This document shows, piece after piece, positions 1,790 through 58,607 of a stretch of DNA of 64,000 nt. The notes below the pieces were generated by a model, which worked only from the letters and a program-made list of their open reading frames with translations, ran no database searches and was not told the DNA's origin. This DNA is from Bugula neritina (taxonomy: Eukaryota > Animalia > Bryozoa). How positions within the stretch are numbered: position 1 is the first letter of the stretch; the number at the start of each line of letters is the position of its first letter. The translations under genes and the position numbers were made by a program. Location: positions 16,026,633 to 16,090,632 of the forward strand of contig OZ037769.1 of assembly GCA_964035545.1 (NCBI GenBank), read 5' to 3'.

Positions 1790-4700
1790 TTATGTGTCAG
1801 CAATCCCTCGTGTGACGAGTATGATGTCTGCTTGCAAGCCCTAGTCTGTGCCGTGATCCGTAATCCGTTCCAGTTCAAAAATCCGTAAAATCCTACTAGA
1901 GGTTGTGAGTTCTGAGGTGACTCACAAGCCCAATTCGAGATCGGCATAATTTGCCACAGTGAGGACAAATGTTACTAGAGTCAGTCACTGGTGGGTGTGT
2001 AACAGAGCATAACTCCCTGCTTTTCCTTAACCGTTTGTGCTCTCGTTTTTGGCGTTGTTGTTGTTCAAAAATCGCTGTCCCTTGATGCACAACAGTTCTC
2101 CAATTTTTTCTGTCCAAGGCCTGAACTTCCCAGGTCTGTGGTCAAATGAAACACTGCTTAAGGCTCTCGTGTAGAGTGTCTTTATACCTTTTCCTCTGAC
2201 CACCCTGTGAGCGATTTCCAGTGTTCAGCTCAGAGTACATGATCTTTTTTGGTAGCCGGTTATCATCCATTCTTACCACATGGCCAGACCACTTCAGTTG
2301 TCTCTTCACAATCATGGTAGTAATACTTGTAGTTTGAGCTTTATCGAGGACACTGTTAGTAGTCTGCCTGTCTTGCCATTTGACTCCGAGGATTCGCCTG
2401 AGACTGCGGTTGTGAAATTTCTCGAGGGACAGCAGGTTGTGGCTATAGGTTACCCAAGTTTCAGAGGCATAAAGTAGTGTCGGGAGAACAATGGCTTTGT
2501 ATACTTTTAGTTTGGTCTGTCTGTATATATCCTTGTTGTTGAAAACGCGTGTTTGCAGCCTCCCAAATGCGGAGCTGGCGGCCTGGAGTCTTCGGTTTAT
2601 TTCAGCATCAATGTTTGCTTTAGAGGATAGGCAGCTACCTAAATAGTTGAAGGTAGTGACTTGGTCTAATATTTGGTCTCTCACCTTGAGGGAAAAATCC
2701 TCATGTCTTTCAGTATTCGAGTGTGGTTGGTACATTACTTGCGTCTTCTTGGCATTGAGTGTTAGACCAAGAGAGGTGTATGCTGTATTGAATGCTGTGA
2801 GAGCAAGTTGAAGTTCCTCCTCGGAATGAGCCATGATCATGTTATCATCAGCATACTGCAGTTCATGGATAGCCTCGGTAGCTGTCTTCGTCTTAGCTCT
2901 GAGACGTCTGACATTGAAAATATCATTAAATCTATATCTGATTCTTACTCCAGATGGCATACATTCACTCACTAGTTGAAGTACAGCAGTGAGGAAAATC
3001 GAGAACAAAGTAGGTGCTATCACACATCCCTGTTTTACTCCTGTGTTCACAGGAAACTCCTTAGAGTGGTCTCCATCAACTAATACTGATGCCTTCATGT
3101 CATCATGTAAGATGCGAATGATGGTAACTAATTTGTCGGGGCATCCAATCTTGCCTAGCACTTTCCACAGCGTTGGTCTGTGAACCGTGTCAAAGGCTTT
3201 ATTTAGATCGATGAATGCCATAAACAGATCACGGTGCTGCTCTAGGCATTTTTCTTGAATCTGCCGAGCAGCAAAAATTATATCCACAGTTCCTCGGTAA
3301 GGTCTGAAGCCACATTGGCTCTCTAGTAGGCATCTCTCTGTCAATTGGCCAAGTCTAAAACTAACTATTCTTGCCAGAAGCTTTCCAGCGATGGATAGCA
3401 GAGAGATACCCCTATAGTTTCCACAATCGGCTCTGTTACCCTTCTTGTAAAGAGTTACAATATTAGCATCCTTCAGATCAGGATGAAGTGATTCTTTTTC
3501 CCAAATCAGCTGAAAGAGCTCCAGCAATTTTCTGTTCAATTCTAGCCCACCACCTTTAAAAATCTCTCCAGGTATTCCATCCGGTCCGGCAGCTTTTCCT
3601 GACTTAGTCATGGATAATGCTTTCTCAAGTTCGTCAATCGTTGGGGGTTCGGCTAGGTGGGTCAGTATTGACAGTTGTGGCAGACATTCTAAGGTCTTCT
3701 CATCTACCATAGTGTCTTGGTTAAGCAGCTCTGAAAAATGTTCAGCCCATCTGCCCTTGATCTCATCTTTCCCCTTATGTATTGTGGAACCATCTTTGGA
3801 AGCTATTGGCCCACATCCTCCAAAAATTGGGCCATACAATCTCTTCGTAGCGGAAAAGAACTCTTTGCTACTGTTTGTCTCAGCAAGTCTCTGAAGTTCC
3901 TCAGATTTTGGGATCCACCAGTCATTTTTTATTGTCCTTATTCTCGCCTGTACTTTCCTTCTCATTTTATGATAATGTTCCCTTTTTTCCACATTTCTAT
4001 AGTCTTGGTGCCATAAGCTGAAAGCATGGCGTTTCTCCTTCATGAGCTCGTTTATTTCTTGTTCGTTGTCATCAAACCAATCTTCATGTTTTCGTTCTGG
4101 TTTACCCAAGGTTGAGTGGCATGTTTTCAAGATCGAATCTCTCAGAACTTCCCAGCTGCCATGAGTAGAATTTATATCAATATCTTGGATATTCTCTGTG
4201 AGCTCACTTTGGAAGCTCTGCTTTATTTCTGGCTGGTTGAGCAGCGATAGATTTATTTTTGTCTGCTTTCTTTTCCTGTTCATTTTTGCCAGAATCAGTC
4301 GATGGTCTGTCCAGCAAGCATCAGATAGGTCCATAGCTCGGGTTATACACACATCCTGCACATCCCGTTGTTTGACAATGATGTAGTCGATAAAGTGCCA
4401 GTGGCCAGATCTGGGATGTCTCCATGAGGTCTTGCGTCGGTCTTTCTGTCTAAAAAGGGTGTTTGTGATTACCAAGGAGTGTTCAGCACATTTGGTGAGC
4501 AGCATTTCCCCATTGCTATTTAGCTTCCCAGTCCCATCTTTACCAATTATCTTTTTCCACACATGGTGATCTTTTCCAACCCGAGCATTAAAATCTCCAA
4601 GGACCATGATTTTCGCACTCTTGGGGATCCTTGATAGAACCATATCTAGATTGGAGTAGAACTGCTCCTTTTCCTGATGATCAGCAAGCAATGTCGGTGC

Positions 4701-5719
4701 ATATGCTGAGATCAATGTTGCTTTCCTGTTGCGGCGTAGGTTTAGTTGGAGAGTCATCATCCTGCCGTTGATTCCCACTGGTAGCTGGTCGAGTTTCCTC
4801 ACAACCTCATTCTTGATAGCGAAACCAACCCCATGAACTCTCTGTTCATCAGCTGGTTTCCCTCTCCAGAAAAAAGTGTACCCACCACCAATTTCCGTGA
4901 GCTGCCCTTCATCAGCTAAGCGAGTTTCCTGAAGGGCTGCTATGTCTACATTTAGTCTTCTGAGTTCACGAGCTATGAAAGCCGTTCTTCTCTCAGGTCT
5001 GTTTGATTTATCATTGTCCATCATTGTCCGTACATTCCAGGTTGCTATGTTCATTTGTATTTTCTGACCGCAAAGAGGTGAACCCGCTGGACGCGGTAAT
5101 CCAGCCAGGTTGAGTTGGGAGCAGACTATGTTTGAGGCACCTTTTCTAGCCCTCTCCTCTGATTGAGGTGAGCAGAGTGGGTCCTAAAAAGGACTGCTCA
5201 GTCATAGAGATCACTACCGAACAACCATACTGCTCCCTGTCCTAAGTTGAGCGACTGATAAATCTCTACCGCCTACGTGCTGGTTTGTAACTGGAAACTT
5301 CCAGGCTTCACTTCCCTGTTCCCATCGCTACGCTCCAATCGCCGCAGGGCTTGAGGAGGGTTGCAAGCAGAAGCTGTGCGTGGTATAGAGCATTGTCGCA
5401 CGAAACGATACTCTGTAAGCTTGGCTAGGCATGTATGGATCCAGTGGCAAGGGAGCCTCGACGACTGGAAAACATGCCTAGTTGCAGTGAATGGCCGTTG
5501 ATTCATGGAATTCATTCGCCCTTTCAGTTTCCTGACGAGTGTTCACAAACCCGTTGCGTTTGTATAGGGACCACCTCCCATAGCCTTTGTGTTTATCTGA
5601 AACACATCCCGCAAGGCAGCGGGTGTACACTGGTTTAGTCGCCAGCGGCTCGACCATGAAACAGGTGGTACTGGATTACATGGTACCAGTAGCAGGTTAT
5701 TAGATCCTGACCTGACTGG
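1790..5719 (-). mobile_element. Full-length RTE-clade non-LTR retrotransposon (LINE)
   Basis: Single APE-endonuclease/RT ORF with about 665 bp of 5' UTR. It is flanked by a 13-bp direct repeat CAGTGACTGAGTA at 1777-1789 and 5720-5732 (TSD). Confidence 0.9.
1896..5054 (-). pseudogene. LINE ORF: AP endonuclease + reverse transcriptase + C-terminal C2H2 finger, with one in-frame stop at 2142-2144
   Basis: Endonuclease motifs: ATWNVRT, LQETR, GDFNAR, IDYI, TDH. RT motifs: NYRGISLL, KAFD, GVKQGC, YADD, YLGS. ORF 1896-2117 is in the same frame beyond the TGA and ends CPHCGKLCRSRIGLVSHLRTH. Confidence 0.92.
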
Positions 5720-16563: not shown

Positions 16564-18441
<1,878 letters not shown>

Positions 18442-19165
18442 GTAGTAGTAGTTCTAGTAGTCGTACTACCAGTAATCTGGCTTCGCTATGACACTACGAA
18501 TTGAATGTTGACAAGACGCATGCATGTTTGCTGTTGGTAAACTAATTTTTACTGAATTTTAATCAAGCTAAGCTGCAACCTATTTTCTAATGAAATAATA
18601 TATTCAATAATAATATAATAAATATAATAATTATCATTATAATATTTTATCATTTAATTTTATAACTTTTACTTTTAGTTTTAGTATTTTGGTTTTACAT
18701 CAAAATTTACATCATTATGATTATCATTATGATTACAAAATGAAAATAATTATCATTAATCATTACCTTTTAATTTATGATTATAAATAAATATAATTAA
18801 TGTTAGAATTACCACAATTACAATCATAATGATAATGGCATAACGCCAATGATAATCACAATCGTAACACTAATAATAATAGTAATAGTCAAACTCAAGG
18901 ATTGAGCCAATGATTCAGATTGTCTAAATTTAATTAAATAAATTTCAGCCTTGGGTTTAACTTTACAGCTCACAATTTTATTTTACATTACGACTGAGAG
19001 TCACAGTAAGACTAAGAAAAAGAGTAAGTCATACCTTTCTTGCAGTTATTTTCAAAGTTTGTAGTTGTACTGGTACAGTAGTAGACCTAGTAGTAGTACT
19101 AGTAGTAGTAGTAGTAACAGTACTATTAGTAGTAGTAGTAGTAGTAGTACTAGTACTAGTAGCAG

Positions 19166-19471
19166 TGTGGTGGTTCGTGGAACTACCAGCAGCACAACGT
19201 GTAGGGTCGCGTAATTGACCCGGAACAATGGATAGCCAATTAGCGTAGTTGATAGTTAGCAGCAATTGTAGCTTCCCGCTGCTAACGCAGTCGAAGCTAG
19301 AGTGTGAAATAGATTAGATGTGTAACTTGTTAGAAATAATGTATCGTGTTTTTATAATGTATAGTTGTGTATAAAATATACTCGTTCACTCGACTTAGCC
19401 TGGTGCAGTTCTATACTAGATAAATAGACTCTCTGGATAGCATATCAACCCTAAATCTGAAAAATATAACA
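19166..19471 (+). repeat. 5' LTR
   Basis: TGTGGTGG...ATATAACA; no differences from 26363-26668 seen by eye. Confidence 0.95.
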
Positions 19472-19472
19472 G

Positions 19473-19490
19473 TGGTGGCAGCGGTGGGAT
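19473..19490 (+). promoter_or_regulatory. Primer-binding site, tRNA-Leu type
   Basis: TGGTGGCAGCGGTGGGAT, 1 nt after the LTR, is complementary to the 3' end ...AUCCCACCGCUGCCACCA of eukaryotic tRNA-Leu(AAG/UAG). Confidence 0.85.
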
Positions 19491-19502
19491 AGTGCATCCA
19501 AG

Positions 19503-20462
19503 ATGGAGACTGAAAATGCTGGAACTCAACCACCGGCAATCGAAGGTGAGCGTAGAGACAATGCTATAGAGACAATGCCTATTAACCATGTAGTAGAAGA
19601 GCGAAGGGTTCCGCGAGAACTAGCTGAATACCGCTACAGGTTAAAGGCGCCCACCTTCACGGGTGAAGAGGAGGTGGAACAATTTATCCAAGAGTTTAGC
19701 GACGTAATGGACGTCGCTCAGTGGCCCCCTAGGGTGGCCCTGTTGAAGCTTAGAATGGCATTGATGGACAAAGCCAAGCCCTATGGGCTGGGCGTAGACA
19801 TTGATAATATCTTTGCTTCTCTGCGGGCCCGCTTTGGCCTCTCTGCTACAGATGCCAGGGCCCGATTGCAGAGGTTACGGCGTGATCCCCGCACCCCGCT
19901 GCGGGAGCATGCCGCCGCGGTTATGAAGCTGGCACAGATCGCGTACAGCGACTTGCCCCCAGTCAACCGCGAGAGGTACACCCTCGACGCTTTCATAGCA
20001 TCTGTCGACGATCTGGGTCTCCACCACCAGTTTCTAGCTAGGGGAGTCACCACCGTTGAAGATGCTCTGACTGAGGGGGAAGCTTACCTCCTAGCTAACC
20101 AAATGCATAAAAGTCGCGGAAGCTCCCGCCAAGTGGAGATAGACCGCGCAGACACGGCCGCGGGACAAGGGGAGGAAACCCCCGCCGCAGCTGCCGTGTC
20201 CCAGTTGGCGACGGCATCAAAAGTCACTCAACTGACGGACATGCTAGCCAAGCTGATAGCAACACTGACACCACAAAACCCAGTGAGTACCGCCCCTGAG
20301 CCCATGCGGCCATCGGCGCCGCCACAGGGAGAAACAGTCAGTTTTTGCTGGGAGTGCGGAAATCAAGGACATTTCCGCCGATATTGTCCCTTCCTAAATC
20401 AGGGGTTAAACTACCGCGGCCCGCAGATGTTCCCACCTTCCGCGGGCCGACGAAACCTCTAG
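19503..20462 (+). CDS. gag: Gag polyprotein
   Basis: 319-aa ORF right after the PBS, with the CCHC knuckle CWECGNQGHFRRYC. Confidence 0.9.
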   Translation: METENAGTQPPAIEGERRDNAIETMPINHVVEERRVPRELAEYRYRLKAPTFTGEEEVEQFIQEFSDVMDVAQWPPRVALLKLRMALMDKAKPYGLGVDIDNIFASLRARFGLSATDARARLQRLRRDPRTPLREHAAAVMKLAQIAYSDLPPVNRERYTLDAFIASVDDLGLHHQFLARGVTTVEDALTEGEAYLLANQMHKSRGSSRQVEIDRADTAAGQGEETPAAAAVSQLATASKVTQLTDMLAKLIATLTPQNPVSTAPEPMRPSAPPQGETVSFCWECGNQGHFRRYCPFLNQGLNYRGPQMFPPSAGRRNL

Positions 20463-23400
20463 GGAAGAAGAAACGCAGGTCACCCAGACGGGTACCGCGT
20501 ACTGGCAACCAACAGTGGCAACAGCCACGACGGACCAGCAAGGGGCTTCGCCCCGCGGCTGCCTTTTCTATGCCCCTTCACAACAGATTCACAGGGCTAC
20601 AAGTCCAAGAATCTGGATGGGAGCACACAAAGGTAGCTGAGAATCTAGCCTCGGCACCCCCGAGGCCTACCTATCACCGCCCCAAGAGACCTCCTTCGCG
20701 ACCCAAAGCGAGGGAGGTACTCCCTGCGAGAGTAAGGCCTGAAGGGAGAGTTCAGGTGCAGCCCCATGGGAACAGCTATTTCTTGCCCGGTAAACTGGAA
20801 GGCAAAGCTGTTACTTTTCTCATTGATTTGGGCTGTACCACAAACTTCTTAAGCCGCCAACTCTTCGACACCCTCAGTGCTAGGGTCAGGGGCGAGATGG
20901 AAGCATACGAAGGGGAATACGGCACCCTAGCTGACGGGTCATGCCTTCCCTTCTATGGTATAATTGAGCTGACGGGACGAGTCCGCGATCAAACGATCCA
21001 AGAGACGTTTATCGTCAGTCAGCTCAAGGAGGATGCTATCCTCGGGATGCCGTTCCTTAAACGGCACGGATGTCACATAGATTTTAGCAGATCTGCAATG
21101 ATGATGTCCGGGCGGGAACTCGCCTGCGTCGACAAGTTCGGCTGCCCTTTAGTGGGAGGTGTGCAAGTGGTACGCAACCGTACTATACCAGGCCGCTCCC
21201 GGGCTACCATTCACTGCAGGGTGAATAGTAGCCGGATCTCTGGACTCGGGGTGGTTGAAGGCGCGCACGAAAAGATCCAACTTGCCAGCAGTCTGAATCA
21301 GCTGACTGAGCAAGGGGAGATCTTAGTGCAGTGCGTCAACCCCTTTACCGAGCCTATCAAGCTCCCGGCTGGGTCGATGCTGGGCCGTTTTCACTCTGTT
21401 CAAGAGGGAGACGTAGGCCCGTCGCTGGGTGATGCGACAGAGGCACTCCCTCGACACCCTATTCAGGGACGAGGGGCAGTCCCAACACATCTCCGGGAGT
21501 TATACGAAACAGCCAGTGGCGGCTGCGCGAGTAACAGAGAGCGCCAGGCTATGGCCAAGTTACTACGCGACTACGGTGATGTGTTCAGCAGCGGAGAGCA
21601 TGACGTGGGACTGACTGGAATTGTCAGACACGAAATACCGCTGACTGCAGGGACAGTCCCTGTCCGGCAGCCCACACGCAGGCTGGGGCCGGAGAAAGAG
21701 AAGGAGGTTAGCCGACAAGTACGGGATCTTCTGGACCGGGGACTGATAGAGCCCGCCCATAGTGCGTGGAGCTCGCCAGTCGTACTGGTCCGGAAGAAAG
21801 ACGGCAGTTGGCGGTTCTGTGTGGACTACCGCAAACTCAATAGCGTAACCATACAGGACGCCTACCCTCTACCTCGTATTGACGAGTCATTGGACGCCCT
21901 AGCCGGCAGCAAGTACTTCAGTACGTTAGACTTGCTAAGCGGCTATTGGCAGGTTCCTCTGAGTCCCGACGCCCAAGAGAAAGCGGCGTTTATCACACGG
22001 GACGGTTTGTGGAAGTGGAAGGTGCTGCCCTTCGGGTTAACCTCCGCCCCAGCCACCTTCCAGAGGCTGATGGAACAAGTCCTTAGCGGACTCCATTGGA
22101 AGACACTGCTGGTCTACCTCGATGATGTCATCGTAATCTCTCCAGACTTCGAGACACATGTCAGTCGTCTGCAGGAGGTTTTCGAGAGACTCCGAGGTGC
22201 CGGTCTGAAGCTCAAACCTTCCAAGTGCGCTCTGTTGCAGCCGGAGGTCAAGTACCTGGGGCACGTTGTCGGTCGAAACGGCGTGGCAACGGATCCCGAA
22301 AAGGTACGGGCAGTAGAAGACTGGGTCACCCCCCAAGACTTGACCGGACTCGGGGCTTTCTTGGGGCTGGTAGGGTATTACAGGCAATACATACCAGACT
22401 TTGCGGGCATAGCCCAGCCTTTAAACCGGCTTACCGCAAAGGGAGTGACGTGGCAGTGGACCCCAGTCGAACAAGAAGCGTTCGACCGCCTCAAGGGCTG
22501 CCTCCTAACGGCGCCCATCTTGGCCTACTCAGACCCCACTCTGGAGTACATCCTAGACACGGACGCCAGTGACCAGAATGTTGGCGCTGTGCTGTCACAA
22601 GTGCAGGAAGGCCGAGAAGTAGTAGTAGCCTACTACAGCAAGTCTCTCTCTCCCGCTGAACGAAATTACTGCACTACCCGCAAGGAACTGCTGGCAGTAA
22701 TCAAGTCAGTGAAGCACTTCAGACCATACCTATATGGCAGGAAGTTCCGGCTGCGTACGGATCATGCCTCGCTGATCTGGTTGTGCAGGAGAGCAGAGCC
22801 CTCTAGTCAGGTCGCCCGGTGGCTCGAAATCCTAGCTGAATTCTCGTACCGGATCGAACATCGACCGGGCAAGAGACACAGCAATGCGGATGGGTTGAGT
22901 CGCCGACCTGACGGAGATTGCAAACAGTGTCTCAACATCGAGAGGAGGGATGGAGGTCCCCCACGATGCGAGTTGGAGACGCTGGCTCATCACGGAGCAC
23001 CGTTTGACTGGGATCAAGGTCAACTCAGGCAGAGAGTTGATGAGTCCCCGGAGGATGTGCAAAACCTCCGCGCCAACCCTGTACTGGCCGGTAATGTTCG
23101 AGAGCTGAAGAAGCTCCAAGAAGAACTGCCTGGAGTCGTGGCAGACATATACCGGGCCAAACGGGAAGGGCGACGACCCAGCGAGGAACGCATAAGACAG
23201 GGATGCTCCGAGTTCCGGCTATACTGTCAGCGTTGGGACTCGCTGCGGATCGGGCAGGATGGGTTGCTAACCATCTCTCTAGCTGCCAGCGGCAGACACC
23301 CGGAAAGGAAGAGGGTAGTCTGCCCCACAGCCATCCGCCGTGAGTTGATTTGGGATACTCACAAGCAGGCCCACGCAGGGGTCAAGCGAGTGATGTCCAA

Positions 23401-24973
23401 ATTACGACTCCGGTGGTATTGGCCGCAGATGGAGCGTGACGTCCGGCTCAGAGTCAAACAGTGTGAGATCTGCCAGGCCAGTAAGCATAGCCGCCCCCCT
23501 GGTGAAGCAGGACGGCGGAGGCTATATGCTGGCAGGCCCTGGCAAGTAGTCGCTGTAGACCTGGTCGGACCCATGCCCCTGACCCCCAGAGGCAATAATT
23601 GGATCCTAGTACTAACCGACCACTTTACTAGGTGGGCGGATGCTCTGGCTATCCCAGATGCATCAGCCCCAACAGTGGCCAGGGCACTAGACCAACATGT
23701 ATTCTGTTATTTTGGGCTTCCCGAACAGATACACTCTGATCAAGGCGCTCAATTCCAGTCTCAACTGATGAGCGACCTTTGCCACCTCTGGGGAGTAAAT
23801 CAGAGCAGGACCACCCCCTACCACCCCCAAGGTAACGGGGTGGTGGAGCGCAACAACCGGATGCTAGGTGATGCACTCCGGAGTCTCCTCCTTGGACGAG
23901 GTCAAGAGGAATGGGATACGGTGTTGCCGCAAGTCATGCGTGCATACCGTAGCACCCCACACACCAGTACTGGTGAGACCCCAAACCTCTTGATGTTCGG
24001 GAGGGAGACTCGTGTCCCTGACCATCTCACCTATCACGTTCCAGAGCAGGATAACTCAATCCACGAGTATGCCAGTGAACTAGTGGAACGGATATAGGCC
24101 GCACACGAGATACTGCGTCAACAGCAGTGGAAGGTGCGGCACGAAGATTCCGATGAACCACCCCTCTATCAAAGAGGAGATAAGGTGTGGATGGTCAATT
24201 ACCGTAGGCGCCGCGGACAGGCTGATAAGTTGAAGCCTAAGTTCGTAGGCCCCTACGTGGTCGTCGAGGCTATGCCCAATCATACGTACAAGATTGAGCG
24301 CTCAGGACAGGTGTCTATCCAGAATGAGTCTCGCTTGAAACCGTATTGGGCTAGCCCCGGCGGAGTGGGAGAAGCCCCCCCGTTGTTAGAGCCCAGAAGG
24401 CAGACAACAACGCGCGGGCGACGGCGGCATGGACCTGAATACGAAGTGGTCATACCGCGGGAAGAAAACTTGGTGAGAGAGGAGCGGCAGCTTCTGCCAA
24501 CAGAAGCGTGTCCGCCACCGCCAAGTCTGATTCCATCACTTCCAGAAACCGAGCCGGTTCCGGAAGTGCAAACCCCCACGGAGGGAGGGGCTCCATCCGG
24601 AGAACAAGAAGAGGTGACTGCTGACGGTGAAGTAGAGACGCCATTAGAGGCCCCTACTAACGAACCGGCAAGCGTGTCACCCCCCCTAGAAAGGGAACAG
24701 CGTACGAGGCAAGCCCCCGCATACTTGAAGGACTTCGTATGTGACTGCGTTAAAAGCGGCACACATGAAAGTCTAGGGGAAAACCGTACGAGAAAAGAAT
24801 CGAGCAAATGTGGGAGTTGTCAACACCACGGAAATATCAACTTTTGTATCGGCGGAAGTAGAAACAAAATTCATCCGCCGGGTGCACAAAGTCTTAATCA
24901 CGCACCCCAACCACGTTGCTCGATCTTTTCATACGCTGATGCAGTCAAGAGTAGACGTGTTTCTAAGCAGTAG
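20345..24973 (+). pseudogene. pol: Pol polyprotein (protease, RT, RNase H, integrase) with an in-frame TAG at 24095-24097
   Basis: Motifs: LIDLG (protease site, normally DS/TG), WRFCVDYRKLN, YLDD, DTDAS, the HHCC finger and the DDE core. ORF 24134-24973 is in the same frame and holds the integrase GPY motif (KFVGPY). Confidence 0.92.
20405..20449 (+). promoter_or_regulatory. Candidate -1 programmed ribosomal frameshift signal (gag-pol)
   Basis: G_TTA_AAC in the gag frame (20405-20411), a 5-nt spacer, then an 8-bp GC stem CGGCCCGC/GCGGGCCG (20417-20424 / 20442-20449). A -1 shift enters the pol frame (…KLPRP). Confidence 0.75.
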
Positions 24974-24997
24974 TTCAAACCATTTCACATAGTCAGT

Positions 24998-26074
24998 ATG
25001 TCTTACGACAACAGATCGTGGGGTGAGTTAACTATATCTTAATACGAAACTAGATTGCATCGCTCAGCTCTGACTCACTGAGTCAATCGAGCTGGAGATA
25101 GGTTAGTGAAATACCGTAGTAAGAACTTAGTTTGACTTAGAGATTTTTATAATCTCATTGCAATACGGTTCTATCTGACTATTCACTATCAGTAATCTCT
25201 ACGAGGTAACTGAATTAGGAGTTGCCAAGCTGTTCAAGCTGACAACACAGCAGTGTACTGTACTAACACTGTTGAAACTTTTTCAGATTACACTCGACCC
25301 GCTACAACCAGGGTACGGGATAGAACACTTCCCGCTCCGTATCCGGAGGACTATGCTAGTGGTGACCGGCCTGAGCCACTACGCCGCCGTTGGCGGTAGG
25401 TGTCTCCACAAACCGAAGAAGAAATAGAAACAGCCTGGGGGTCCAGAGGACGGACGAGATGCCAGATCTGTGGTGAAGATTGCGCCTCTCACCGCTCCCT
25501 TAAACTACACGTCAATGCTCACCTCCTACTGACCTTCTGCCCCTGCGGGTACAATGATGTGTATCCCTAACCCGTCACCAGACACCGAGCGGCGGGCTGT
25601 TTCCCTGGAGAAAACTATGTGGTCGACGCTAAGCTGTACCCGGAGTTCCTCACATATATACGACCTCTGGTAAAGAAGGCCATGCTATTAGCCGTTCTAT
25701 CCTCGGGGTTCCAACGTGTGTTAGACAACGCCCGCCAACAATCCCCGTTGGTGTCTGACCGCCCTCAAATTACATACACCCCCGAGGAAACTACATATCC
25801 AGAAGAAGGAGAGATCTCCCCTACCCCGGCGAAGAGACGGACCAGGTCCCCCAGTCCACCCTTACGCCGCAGACGGACACCGTCCCCCGACCCGGTACGA
25901 CTAGCCACAGTAGAAGAACGCCTCCTACGATTACAAGAAGAGTTCACCCAGCTGGCACCAGACCTACTTAACACTACAACAGGACTCTTCCAGCTCAAGG
26001 GATCCGTATGCCGTATGAAACGGAAACTGCGTACATGCCAAGCCAAGCACCGGCGTGCCCAACAAGGACTCTAG
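24998..26074 (+). pseudogene. Spliced third gene of the gypsy element: C2H2 zinc-finger protein (exons 24998-25022 and 25287-26074; two in-frame stops in this copy)
   Basis: ATG at 24998, donor G|GTGAGT at 25023, branch point TACTAAC at 25261-25267 and acceptor TTTTTCAG ending at 25286. Phases match. The product contains CQICGEDCASHRSLKLHVNAH (C-x2-C-x12-H-x3-H) in frame with ORF 25619-26074. Confidence 0.72.
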
Positions 26075-26351
26075 TATGCTACCCAGAATACTCCGCAACT
26101 CCACATTTGGTGAGGAACCAAACTCGTGCAAATGCTTAACTGCTAGACAGGTTAATCCTTGTCTACTACCACAGCTAGCTAGTATTCCTCGTCTATCTAC
26201 AGCTGGCCAATTGTATGCAACGGACCGTTACCATGACTCTGTCTATTATTATGTCTCTTCCTGTATATTATGTATTATTTTTGTCCACTGATGTATACAA
26301 TTACTATTGAATGTTTTTTTTATATATATATCAGAAAGATGGCTTTCTGCT

Positions 26352-26362
26352 GGTGGGGGCGG
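26352..26362 (+). promoter_or_regulatory. Polypurine tract
   Basis: GGTGGGGGCGG directly before the 3' LTR. Confidence 0.7.
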
Positions 26363-26668
26363 TGTGGTGGTTCGTGGAACTACCAGCAGCACAACGTGTA
26401 GGGTCGCGTAATTGACCCGGAACAATGGATAGCCAATTAGCGTAGTTGATAGTTAGCAGCAATTGTAGCTTCCCGCTGCTAACGCAGTCGAAGCTAGAGT
26501 GTGAAATAGATTAGATGTGTAACTTGTTAGAAATAATGTATCGTGTTTTTATAATGTATAGTTGTGTATAAAATATACTCGTTCACTCGACTTAGCCTGG
26601 TGCAGTTCTATACTAGATAAATAGACTCTCTGGATAGCATATCAACCCTAAATCTGAAAAATATAACA
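26363..26668 (+). repeat. 3' LTR
   Basis: 306-bp direct repeat of 19166-19471, followed by the TSD GCAG. Confidence 0.95.
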
Positions 26669-27782
26669 GCAGTACTAGTACTAGTTGTAGTACTAGTATC
26701 AGTGGTAGTAGTAATAGGACTGCGATCTTAGATGTAAGTCTAATGAAATACGAATAATAATAGTATAAGTATAACTTTTACATATTTAGTTTTACTATAA
26801 GTGTAAATATAATGAGTAATAGTAAAACTCAAAGTATATACATTAACTCAGTTTAGCATTAATGATAAAATATAATAATTATAATAAAGTAATATGATCA
26901 CCATTACGATTATAATTAAAATTCTTAGTAACACTTTTATAATACTCAGTTTAATTTATTAATATTAAACATTAGTTTGGCTACCACAAATAACTAATAA
27001 GTGCTACTATAGGTAACTGTAAAGATAAGTATAAATTTAACTATAACATAGACTATCAGCAATAATAATATATCATATTGATATTAAACTATATATGGAT
27101 AATGCAAATCATAGATCATACCTCATGATAATTATTCCTAATGATCTTACTTTTTATATGCTGATGCTAATAAGTAGTAATTTTAAATTTGATAACTCAT
27201 GAATGATGAATAAGATAACAAGAATAATACTGGACCTAATAATACTATTAGTCCTACTACTAGAATTTTATTATCTTATATTTGTAATACGCTTCTTTTA
27301 GTAATACTGCTGGTCAAAGTTAGTGTTAATCATATTTATAGTTAAATGTTGAAGGAATAAATTAGTTCATAACATAAACATTGCACTATGTGAATATGAA
27401 ATTTAATATGAATATCCCAATTACACTTGCTGTTGCTCTTTAGAGACTAGAGTTATAACTTATAACTATGATATAATAATGAATACCATTATTTTAACTA
27501 ATCATATTACTCAGCTAATGTTAATGATAACTGTAAGTCTAAAAACCATTACGGTTATAGGTATCACTGACTAATATTATTAATAATATAATCATTCGTT
27601 TTATACTTGTACCTATATTTATATTTATACTTATACCTATTTTTATACTTATGATCATATCTATACTTTCCGTATGCTTGTACATTTTACTCATAGTATC
27701 AGGGTGGCAATCGAAAAGTCATATTCGATATGCTAATCTAATAATAGAACCAACTGCACTAATATAGTTGTATATTATTATT

Positions 27783-41120: not shown

Positions 41121-44100
41121 ATGATATACAACTATATTAGTGCAGTTGGTTCTATTATTAGATTAGCATATCGATTATGACTTTTCGATTGCCACCCTGA
41201 TACTATGAGTAAAATGTACAAGCATACGTGAAAGTATAGATATGATCATAAGTATAAAAATAGGTATAAGTATAAATATAAATATAGGTACAAGTATAAA
41301 ACGAATGATTATATTATTAATAATATTAGTTATACCTATAACAGTGATACCTATAACCGTAATGGTTTTTAGACTTACAGTTATCATTAACATTAGCTGA
41401 GTAATATGATTAGTTAAAATAATGGTATTCATTAATATATCATAGTTATAAGTTATAACTCTAGTCTCTAAAGAGCAACAGCAAGTGTAATTGGGATATT
41501 CATATTAAATTTCATATTCACATAGTGCAATGTTTATGTTATGAACTAATTTATTCCTTCAACATTTAACTATAAATATGATTAACACTAACTTTGACCA
41601 GCAGTATTACTAAAAGAAGCGTATTACACATATAAGATAATAAAATTCTAGTAGTGGGACTAATAGTATTACTAGGTCCGGTATTATTCTTGTTATCTTA
41701 TTCATCATTCATGAGTTATCAAATTTAAAATTACTACTTATTAGCATCAGCATATAAAAAGTAAGATCATTAGGAATAATTATCATGAGGTATGATCTAT
41801 GATTTGCATTATCCATATATAGTTTAATACCAATATGATATATTATTATTGCTGATAGTCTATGTTATAGTTAAATTTATACTTATCTTTACAGTTACCT
41901 ATAGTAGCACTTATTAGTTATTTGTGGTAGCCAAACTAATGTTTAATATTAATAAATTAAACTGAGTATCATAAAAGTGTTACTAAGAATTTTAATTATA
42001 ATCGTAATGGTGATCATATTACTTTATTATAATTATTATATTTTATCACTAATGCTAAACTGAGTTAATGTATATACTTTGAGTTTTACTATTACTCATT
42101 ATATTTACACTTATAGTAAAACTAAATATGTAAAAGTTATACTTATACTATTATTATTCGTATTTCATTAGACTTACATCTAAGATCGCAGTCCTATTAC
42201 TACTACCACTGATACTAGTACTACAACTAGTACTAGTACTGCTACTAGTACTACTACTACTACTACTAATAGTACTGTTACTACTACTACTACTAGTACT
42301 ACTACTAGGTCTACTACTGTACTAGTACAACTACAAACTTTGAAAATAACTGCAAGAAAGGTATGACTTACTCTTTTTCTTAGTCTTACTGTCACTGTGA
42401 CTCTCAGTCATAATGTAAAATAAAATTGTGAACTGTAAAGTTAAACCCAAGGCTGAAATTTATTTAATTAAATTTAGACAATCTGAATCATTGGCTCAAT
42501 CCTTGAGTTTGACTATTACTATTATTATTAGTGTTACGATTGTAATTATCATTGGCATTATCATTATGATTATGATTATGCCATTATCATTATGATTGTA
42601 ATTGTGGTAATTCTAACATTAATTATAATCATAAATTAAAAGGTAATGATTAATGATAATTATTTTCATTTTGTAATCATAATGATAATCATAATGATGT
42701 AAATTTTGATGTAAAACCAAAATACTAAAACTAAAAGTAAAAGTTATAAAATTAAATGATAAAATATTATAATCATAATGATAATGATAATTATTATATT
42801 TATTATATTATTATTGAATATATTATTTCATTAAAAAATAGGTTGCAGCTTAGCATGATTAAAATTCAGTAAAAATTAGTTTACCAACAGCAAACATGCA
42901 TGCGTCTTGTCAACATTCAATTCGTAGTGCCATAGCGAAGCCAGAATACTGGTAGTACGACTACTAGAACTACTACTACTAGTGATGGATTACAGATCCT
43001 TGGCGATTTTAGCTGTGAGTGACCTTCACCTCACATTCTCGTCATGCGCGCGGCATTAGACTAAGTAGAGGGTATAAAGCACTGAGCTGGAAAAGAAATA
43101 ATATATTTTAATTATAGGTAATACTAATGGTAATATAATTTATGGTAATATATAGGTAATATTATTGAGTTCATTGGTATGGAGTATAGACCTATCACTG
43201 ATAGTATCAGTATCAACTACCACTTACGTACTACTTCAACTTATAACTTACCTTCAACTCAAACTGCTTGGAATCATTTGTCTTTGATCATATTGGCATT
43301 GTCATTGTGAATGTGATTGAAATAACTATTAATATTTTTAGTTCAACATCAATGCCGAACATATTGTAATAACTAATAAGATAATCATAAGGTTGATATA
43401 CTTTGCTAATACTAATACTAATAGTAATATTAATAGTTATAGTAATTCAGTATCACTCTCACTCTGGTGGAGTGAGACTCAGACTTAGAGTTAGAGACAG
43501 AGTGAGTCTCGGTCCGAGTAAGTCTGAGTGTTGGTAATAGTAATACTAATAGTCATATAAATTTAAATTATATTTACTCATTACCGGCAATCACAATGGC
43601 AATAGTAACTTAAACTGTAACAGTAATGGTATGGGTATGTTTGAAATTGTCACTATCAATATTGCTATGAATCAAAATATAATGCTATCATACCAATAAT
43701 TTAAAATAGTATTACAAAGCTTCAGTAGCAACTTTTACTTGTACCAGTTTGGAATTTTGAATTATACATATTCTTAGTTAAAGTTTTCAAGTTTATTGTC
43801 AAAATGAAATTGAAATTAAAGACTTAGTAGTAAAAATTAAACTAAGACTGACTGTAAGTGACTAAGATTAAAAATAAGTAATTTTAAATATCGATTTAGT
43901 ATTTTTCTTACTCTTTGTCTTAAAATTGACTTTTATTTTGCACCTACTCCTGGTCAATGATTCTTTTTTCTATTTATATTACTATTGCTATTAGTATAAT
44001 TGACTTAAATTTAATAATAGATATGATTATATCTTTATAAATGTTATATTTGATTTTATGAATAGTAATTCGAAAACTCTTTGGTATTATTTATTTTTGA

Positions 44101-57087: not shown

Positions 57088-58607
<1,520 letters not shown>

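Follow-up and report, generated by a model that had tools for sequence, protein, structure and literature searches.

A probable gag-spliced accessory gene encoding a predicted double zinc-finger protein in a Ty3/gypsy retrotransposon of Bugula neritina

Gypsy elements are commonly regarded as plain gag-pol(-env) units. In the Errantiviruses of Drosophila (gypsy, ZAM and idefix), env-F is a third ORF located after pol and expressed from a spliced subgenomic RNA (PMC4276936, PMC12992720), and the env of the idefix subclade is described as having its donor inside gag (PMC12992720). In Cer1, a Ty3/gypsy element of C. elegans, the post-pol slot is occupied by CERV, which is spliced to gag-frame exons, carries a Cys finger, a zipper and an NLS and is required for export of the genomic RNA (PMC10309623). 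The same account describes CERV as a protein of 517 aa encoded by five exons, with a C4-type finger and M and G domains, and reports it only from nematodes (PMC10309623). The LTR elements of bdelloid rotifers carry non-env ORF3s of the GDSL, DEDDy, coiled-coil and TM types (PMC5408684). The bryozoan env elements that have been surveyed have, as described there, a gag-env-pol order, unlike the arrangement presented here (PMC13524379). The sORF2 of MDG1 elements is rejected as a model, since it is described as a membrane protein made from unspliced RNA (10.1101/2025.03.14.642691).

The locus presented here lies within a window of 64,000 nucleotides, the whole stretch of Bugula neritina DNA that was analysed, and is very probably a gag-spliced accessory gene of a Ty3/gypsy retrotransposon (Table 1). 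As in Cer1, a post-pol ORF is probably joined to gag-frame sequence by splicing, as seen at the protein level in one relative and with a donor and phase that fit in the present copy, and the product is predicted to combine a metal finger with a zipper; no other feature is evidently common to the two. The bryozoan product differs in its size (~276 aa), its 14-residue leader, its double finger made of a C2H2 and a CxC-H-C motif and its C-terminal helix. None of the features of the CERV M and G domains is seen in it, and no nematode protein is found among the named matches of the third gene. This comparison is one of layout and described domains, not of sequence, and the function of CERV has been demonstrated whereas that of the bryozoan product is proposed. 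The likeness to the env-F of Errantiviruses lies in the post-pol third ORF and in what is likely a spliced subgenomic RNA, suggested here by one Gag-leader fusion product, but signal peptide, membrane anchor and env family match are all absent here and a zinc-finger fold is predicted in place of a fusion glycoprotein. The ORF3s of bdelloids are likewise family-specific extra genes 3' of pol in a spiralian host, but they encode enzymes or membrane proteins, and the word zinc is absent from the main text of that report (PMC5408684). Non-env third ORFs are known (PMC5408684). A literature search, with subscription journals, Repbase and supplements outside its range, gave no description of this third-gene family, and prior annotation of the family elsewhere is possible.

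The element spans 19166-26668 on the plus strand, with LTRs ending in TG...CA, a target-site duplication, a primer-binding site and a polypurine tract all present. An empty paralogous site near 42230-42275 on the minus strand, with a single GCAG, confirms the GCAG duplication. The primer-binding site may resemble tRNA-Leu. The best match of pol among solved structures is Ty3 Gag-Pol (E 6e-123), no chromodomain is found among the Pfam matches of the integrase, and a search inside the element for an internal copy of the LTR sequence found none. A premature stop in pol at 24095-24097, missed by the earlier note on this DNA, brings the nonsense codons of this copy to three, the other two being in the third gene. 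The element is a freshly inserted copy, and because its LTRs are identical despite three nonsense codons it is likely a defective one, moved in trans by intact relatives.

Table 1. Features of the element and its third gene, in positions of the window
Feature	Position	Strand	Basis or remark
5' target-site duplication, GCAG	19162..19165		partner at 26669-26672
5' LTR, 306 bp, TG...CA	19166..19471	+	identical to 3' LTR
Primer-binding site, starts TGG	19473..19490	+	downstream of 5' LTR
gag, one CCHC knuckle	19503..20462	+	homology of Gag
Gag leader (14 codons plus one base), probably the opening coding exon of the third gene	19503..19545	+	P0019 fusion, donor phase
Splice donor AAG/GTGAGC inside gag, phase 1	19546..19551	+	8/9 score
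Candidate large intron (likely)	19546-25286	+	3' end common with 264-nt candidate intron
pol frame: protease-RT-RNase H-integrase-SH3-like	20300..24973	+	Pfam order; stop codon 24971-24973
Mini-exon of earlier note (ATG + 8 codons, phase 1); conserved island, candidate exon	24998..25022	+	allele comparison
264-nt candidate small intron	25023..25286	+	motifs; GTGAGT donor at 25023
Branch-point motif TACTAAC	25261..25267	+	20 nt 5' of acceptor
Acceptor AG	25285-25286	+	sequence; homology from 25287 on
Main exon of third gene	25287..26074	+	homology; two in-frame stops here (25397, 25568)
Predicted compact double zinc-finger domain	25373..25747	+	pLDDT >90 at P0003 residues 41-165; ligand counts
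First finger C-x2-C-x12-H-x3-H	25460-25522	+	spacing, conserved ligands
Second cluster C-x-C-x12-H-x4-C	25538-25600	+	spacing, conserved ligands
Arg/Ser/Pro tract, low-confidence linker	25832..25888	+	lineage-specific
Predicted long helix, coiled-coil-like, basic tail at end	25892..26065	+	model, sequence
Polypurine tract	26352..26362	+	directly 5' of 3' LTR
3' LTR	26363..26668	+	identical to 5' LTR

About 22 kb occurs twice in the window, inverted and circularly permuted, at 92-99% identity (8361-38261 versus 38253-60757), with the gypsy element in one copy and the empty site in the other. The longer ORFs of this duplicated unit gave no Pfam family of note, and the arrangement may represent a segmental duplication, a repeat unit of large size or an artefact of assembly. 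Two copies of a foldback-like palindromic element, almost purely A/T at the centre, occupy different places of the duplicated unit (16564-18441 and 57088-58607). On the minus strand, a LINE has an open frame of 1013 codons for an endonuclease and a reverse transcriptase (2142-5183), and a 22-nt tandem array at about 1190-1760 adjoins this frame. Rfam and tRNA scans of the 64-kb window were empty.

The earlier note described a third gene with an ATG at 24998, 24 nt past the pol stop, followed by a GTGAGT donor, a TACTAAC motif and an AG that delimit a 264-nt intron, a spliced frame of 270 codons and two in-frame stops, and all of these positions are correct; the frame terminates at 26072-26074. 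When the exon translation, with X in place of its stops, was used as the query, 55 proteins among 1323 candidates matched the exon, 93 representatives among 1.84 billion matched the third gene at E<=0.001, and an alignment-based search gave 100 matches among 7996 scored. The named relatives are from the bryozoans Bugula neritina and Watersipora subatra. Stops fixed in every copy had been named as an objection to a functional gene; P0003, a natural copy identical at 258 of 261 positions, has neither, so the stops are not fixed in the family and, judged from the homologs, they are private to this copy. Since protein databases favour open frames, the openness of the homologs is weak evidence alone. 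Among 197 related proteins collected, 117 span the domain, 56 of them close (58% mean identity) and 61 distant (29%). Each of the eight Cys/His ligands is retained in 49-56 of the 56 close homologs, and in the 61 distant ones seven ligands are retained in 56-60 and the eighth, the last Cys, in 42. The identities of close relatives are mostly 48-59% for the third gene and 53-66% for near-full-length Gag matches, which suggests that the third gene evolves roughly like gag. Matches to the third gene and to Gag also occur on contigs of exactly equal size, in 4 of 14 cases at 5.5 kb or longer (0.08 expected from shifted controls), in 6 of 37 at 3 kb or longer (0.5 expected) and in 7 of 101 overall (2.3 expected; control maximum 6). 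On the indirect basis of such equal-size contigs, the third gene appears to travel with gag in relatives; the distant homologs may sit outside LTR elements. Five scans for a locus, over viral contigs with the third gene and with integrase, metagenome contigs with one close and one distant alignment, and genome contigs, yielded none that was confirmed.

The structure of P0003 was modelled from a 57-sequence alignment; an alignment of 33 close rows gave a poor finger region. The model has a confident domain (residues 41-165), a low-confidence linker and then a 58-residue helix, and the compact double-finger domain, which is without a Pfam family, is predicted to fold well. The finger that the earlier note called canonical has the C2H2 spacing and conserved ligands, all four of which are intact in 43 of 56 close and 54 of 61 distant homologs, but its PF00096 zf-C2H2 score of 15.6 bits falls under the curated cut-off of 25.2, and Pfam gave only sub-cut-off matches for the product as a whole. 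The second, atypical Cys/His cluster is present with its ligands conserved, and the coiled-coil-like basic tail is likewise present, as a predicted long helix. A basic stretch (at least 5 Arg/Lys in 10) is found in the C-terminal half of 38 of 42 close and 22 of 39 distant full-length homologs. The Arg/Ser/Pro tract does exist in this copy but recurs in only 4 of 56 close and 3 of 61 distant homologs, so it is lineage-specific and not a family feature. The fold comparison that the earlier note had proposed gave a confident domain but only weak matches. The product has no sequence match among solved structures, and in the PDB search by Foldseek with the whole model the top ten rows are DNA-bound C2H2 arrays, the best at E 0.52 and none at E 0.001 or better. 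A wide structure search with the whole model was filled by generic long helices matching the 58-residue helix, no entry of the viral fold library matched at E<=0.001, and the atlas neighbours are unnamed clusters or C2H2-type. The product has no membrane segment by hydropathy (maximum KD19 1.24), and a KD19 of 1.6 is reached by 3 of 42 full-length close homologs, always in the same internal helix of the domain. No F-type or gB-type fusion-protein family of Pfam matches any of the 33 aligned members at E<=0.1. Because both a membrane segment and a fusion-protein family are lacking, the product is by these criteria not env, as the earlier note had stated, and on comparative grounds the third gene is real, conserved and non-env.

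Relatives of the third gene are also annotated as host proteins, namely EB796_001303, EB796_004208 and EB796_000764 of Bugula neritina and XP_067940963/4 and XP_067944745 of Watersipora subatra. EB796_001303 has 57% identity over 48% of the query, and the double-finger domain is present in the other named proteins as well. These bryozoan proteins, listed as hypothetical or uncharacterised and some of them with two domain copies, are relatives in sequence of the element gene. Two copies each are found in P0184, P0308, P0214 and P0309, among them two isoforms encoded on a 66-Mb Watersipora scaffold and one Bugula protein; capture from the host, or domestication by it, is possible. A quick tree of 62 of the 146 domains places the close family together (99) and leaves host and element origins unseparated.

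The third gene is most likely made in the manner of env, from a subgenomic RNA that would lack ~5.7 kb. The donor inside gag (19545/19546), missed by the earlier note, ranks first of the 431 GT sites of the element, with an 8/9 match to MAG/GTRAGT. The acceptor at 25286 is one of 9 YAG sites that have a branch motif and at least 8/13 pyrimidines, and its motif score alone is unexceptional; it stands above chance because the alignment of close relatives begins there and because P0019 is joined there. The acceptor is read through as Ser/Leu then Asp/Gly in 24 relatives (26 pattern matches minus one false match and minus P0019), all of them YAG-compatible. P0019 opens with 14 residues that match the N-terminus of the Gag homolog P0110 exactly, followed by Asp and the exon sequence. 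Its Gag-leader score is 73 and the next best is 36 when 187 homologs are set against 121 leaders, so that 1 of 187 is joined, and the join agrees with phase 1 at both the gag donor and the 25287 acceptor. P0019 is one protein sequence from one 5.3-kb contig, and its junction is known from the protein, to about a codon. A random deletion that reached both sites within a codon is unlikely, and since the 5.3-kb contig exceeds the expected message, spliced RNA may have been copied and integrated there. Glu-Gly-Glu is found at the donor position in 49 of 67 Gag N-termini, with flanking columns at no more than 28/49, as expected if the donor constrains gag codons; the leader itself varies in length, mostly 10 or 14 residues. 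The product running from the gag donor to 25287 is predicted to have 276 codons in intact copies. Thus, of the splicing control put forward in the earlier note, the acceptor at 25286/25287 is upheld by homology and by P0019, but the start at 24998 with only the 264-nt intron removed is not, the sole joined product (1/187) using the Gag leader. The inheritance of a sense-strand intron is explained by the unspliced RNA being the genome, as described for env (PMC4276936). No splice joints or informative loose ends are among those listed in the contigs of five runs, of which only X3 is recorded as RNA, and X3 spans neither boundary. A different acceptor at 24689, with its own TACTAAC, gained no further support and was set aside; its region is unaligned in several relatives.

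The route of the earlier note would begin at ATG 24998, either from an internal promoter or through re-initiation downstream of pol, and remove only the small intron, so that a 270-codon form could coexist with the Gag-leader form; alternatively, a 26-nt cassette (acceptor 24995-24996) would turn the Gag-leader form off. We regard this as rather improbable, even though this ATG and the main exon share a frame. A ~91%-identical allele shows 23 listed substitutions within 25029-25260 and not one within 24998-25028 (P about 0.04, for a region picked post hoc), but 5 of the 28 differences lie outside that listing, two of them at 24990 and 24992. Both intron ends are common to diverged subfamilies, since short, deeper contig nodes at 24993-25029 and 25261-25301 are shared by runs X6 and X7, yet the differences within these nodes are only partly located, and in one X7 contig the donor is degenerate and the mini-exon contains a stop. 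The 25023 donor is ordinary, its 7/9 match being level with that of 16 other sites (17/431 GT sites). The mini-exon peptide is the N-terminus of none of the 187 homologs, although genomic gene calls would rarely reveal such a start, and the 25022-25287 joint is not among the joints listed in the contigs of the five runs, the RNA run X3 again reaching neither boundary. The mini-exon is probably under constraint, and it may serve as an alternative start or as a frame-switching cassette of 26 nt. An in-frame cassette of 30 nt, using TAG 24990-24992, was dropped, as base 24992 differs in every examined contig of X1, X6 and X7. Still another arrangement, in which integrase would gain a zinc-finger tail through read-through of the pol stop and excision of the small intron, we judge extremely unlikely: pol, ATG 24998 and the main exon do share one genomic frame in this copy, but in one relative the spacer from the pol stop to the ATG is two bases longer, which breaks that frame, and the joined product that was found, P0019, uses Gag.

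With regard to RNA structure, the small intron folds better than shuffles (z -2.8) but ranks 11th among the 29 windows into which the element was divided, and its paired sites carry 9 substitutions, 6 of which break the pair; a structured-RNA role for it is rejected on both grounds. A predicted 9-bp hairpin (25248-25274) holds the TACTAAC motif in its loop and 3' arm, which could weaken the acceptor, and a substitution in one relative breaks an outer pair of this hairpin. The strongest-folding windows of the element, with z from about -4 to -5.5 against 30 shuffles per window, are 24182-24973 and 20486-20749. The former is the pol tail within the likely large intron and is a lead for a response element, and the latter lies just past the gag stop and is a lead for a frameshift structure.

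Because gag-pol lies between its best donor and a perfect branch point, the element must limit splicing and export unspliced RNA. With the strong donor and perfect branch point, the transcript would be spliced by default, and the third-gene product would accumulate from the spliced message. The product might then use its fingers and basic tail to bind the element RNA and its helix to oligomerise, and once accumulated it would switch the output to Gag/Pol and packageable RNA, the unspliced genomic RNA escaping splicing and leaving the nucleus with its help. By analogy with Rev and CERV, we tentatively propose this whole chain, a gag-spliced gene whose product is a nuclear regulator that spares genomic RNA from splicing and aids its export, while holding it to be somewhat short of an even chance; control of genomic versus spliced RNA as the role of the product is similarly plausible without being probable.

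C2H2 fingers most often read DNA, and the weak fold matches to DNA-bound C2H2 arrays suit a DNA-binding role at least as well as an RNA one. The gag-spliced product could thus bind DNA or chromatin and either switch on the LTR or protect the element against silencing by the host, as Tas, an LTR activator, and VANC, an anti-silencing factor, do; this is possible but on the unlikely side. The C2H2 spacing with basic helix residues, the DNA-bound arrays that fill the top ten PDB rows, the C2H2-type assignment of those atlas neighbours that have a family and the host-annotated bryozoan proteins with one or two domain copies all point that way. However, the fold matches all fall short of E 0.001, a compact domain with one or two atypical fingers would be unlike the tandem arrays that read DNA, and the element is without an internal copy of the LTR sequence. 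A cofactor of the particle or of integration, whose coiled coil would bind Gag or integrase while its fingers steer insertion, is very unlikely. It would fit an N-terminus common with Gag and an integrase that shows no chromodomain among its Pfam matches, but the shared leader is just 14 residues and variable.

The proposed regulation of genomic and spliced RNA would, if it holds across the family, make bryozoan gypsy elements 'complex' retrotransposons with Rev-like control independent of nematodes and lentiviruses, achieved through an undescribed double-zinc-finger family. In this speculative and improbable scheme, the Gag-leader splice would make the regulator, the conserved post-pol mini-exon would tune it as a frame switch or alternative start, structured RNA of the pol tail would be the response element, and the domain would have passed between elements and host genes. 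CERV is the one splice-made regulator in the post-pol slot turned up by the literature search, and a second, apparently unrelated family with the same layout would suggest repeated evolution of accessory regulators that balance spliced against genomic RNA. The family offers a defined domain and exact junctions that are open to testing, and it may account for a set of 'hypothetical' bryozoan proteins.
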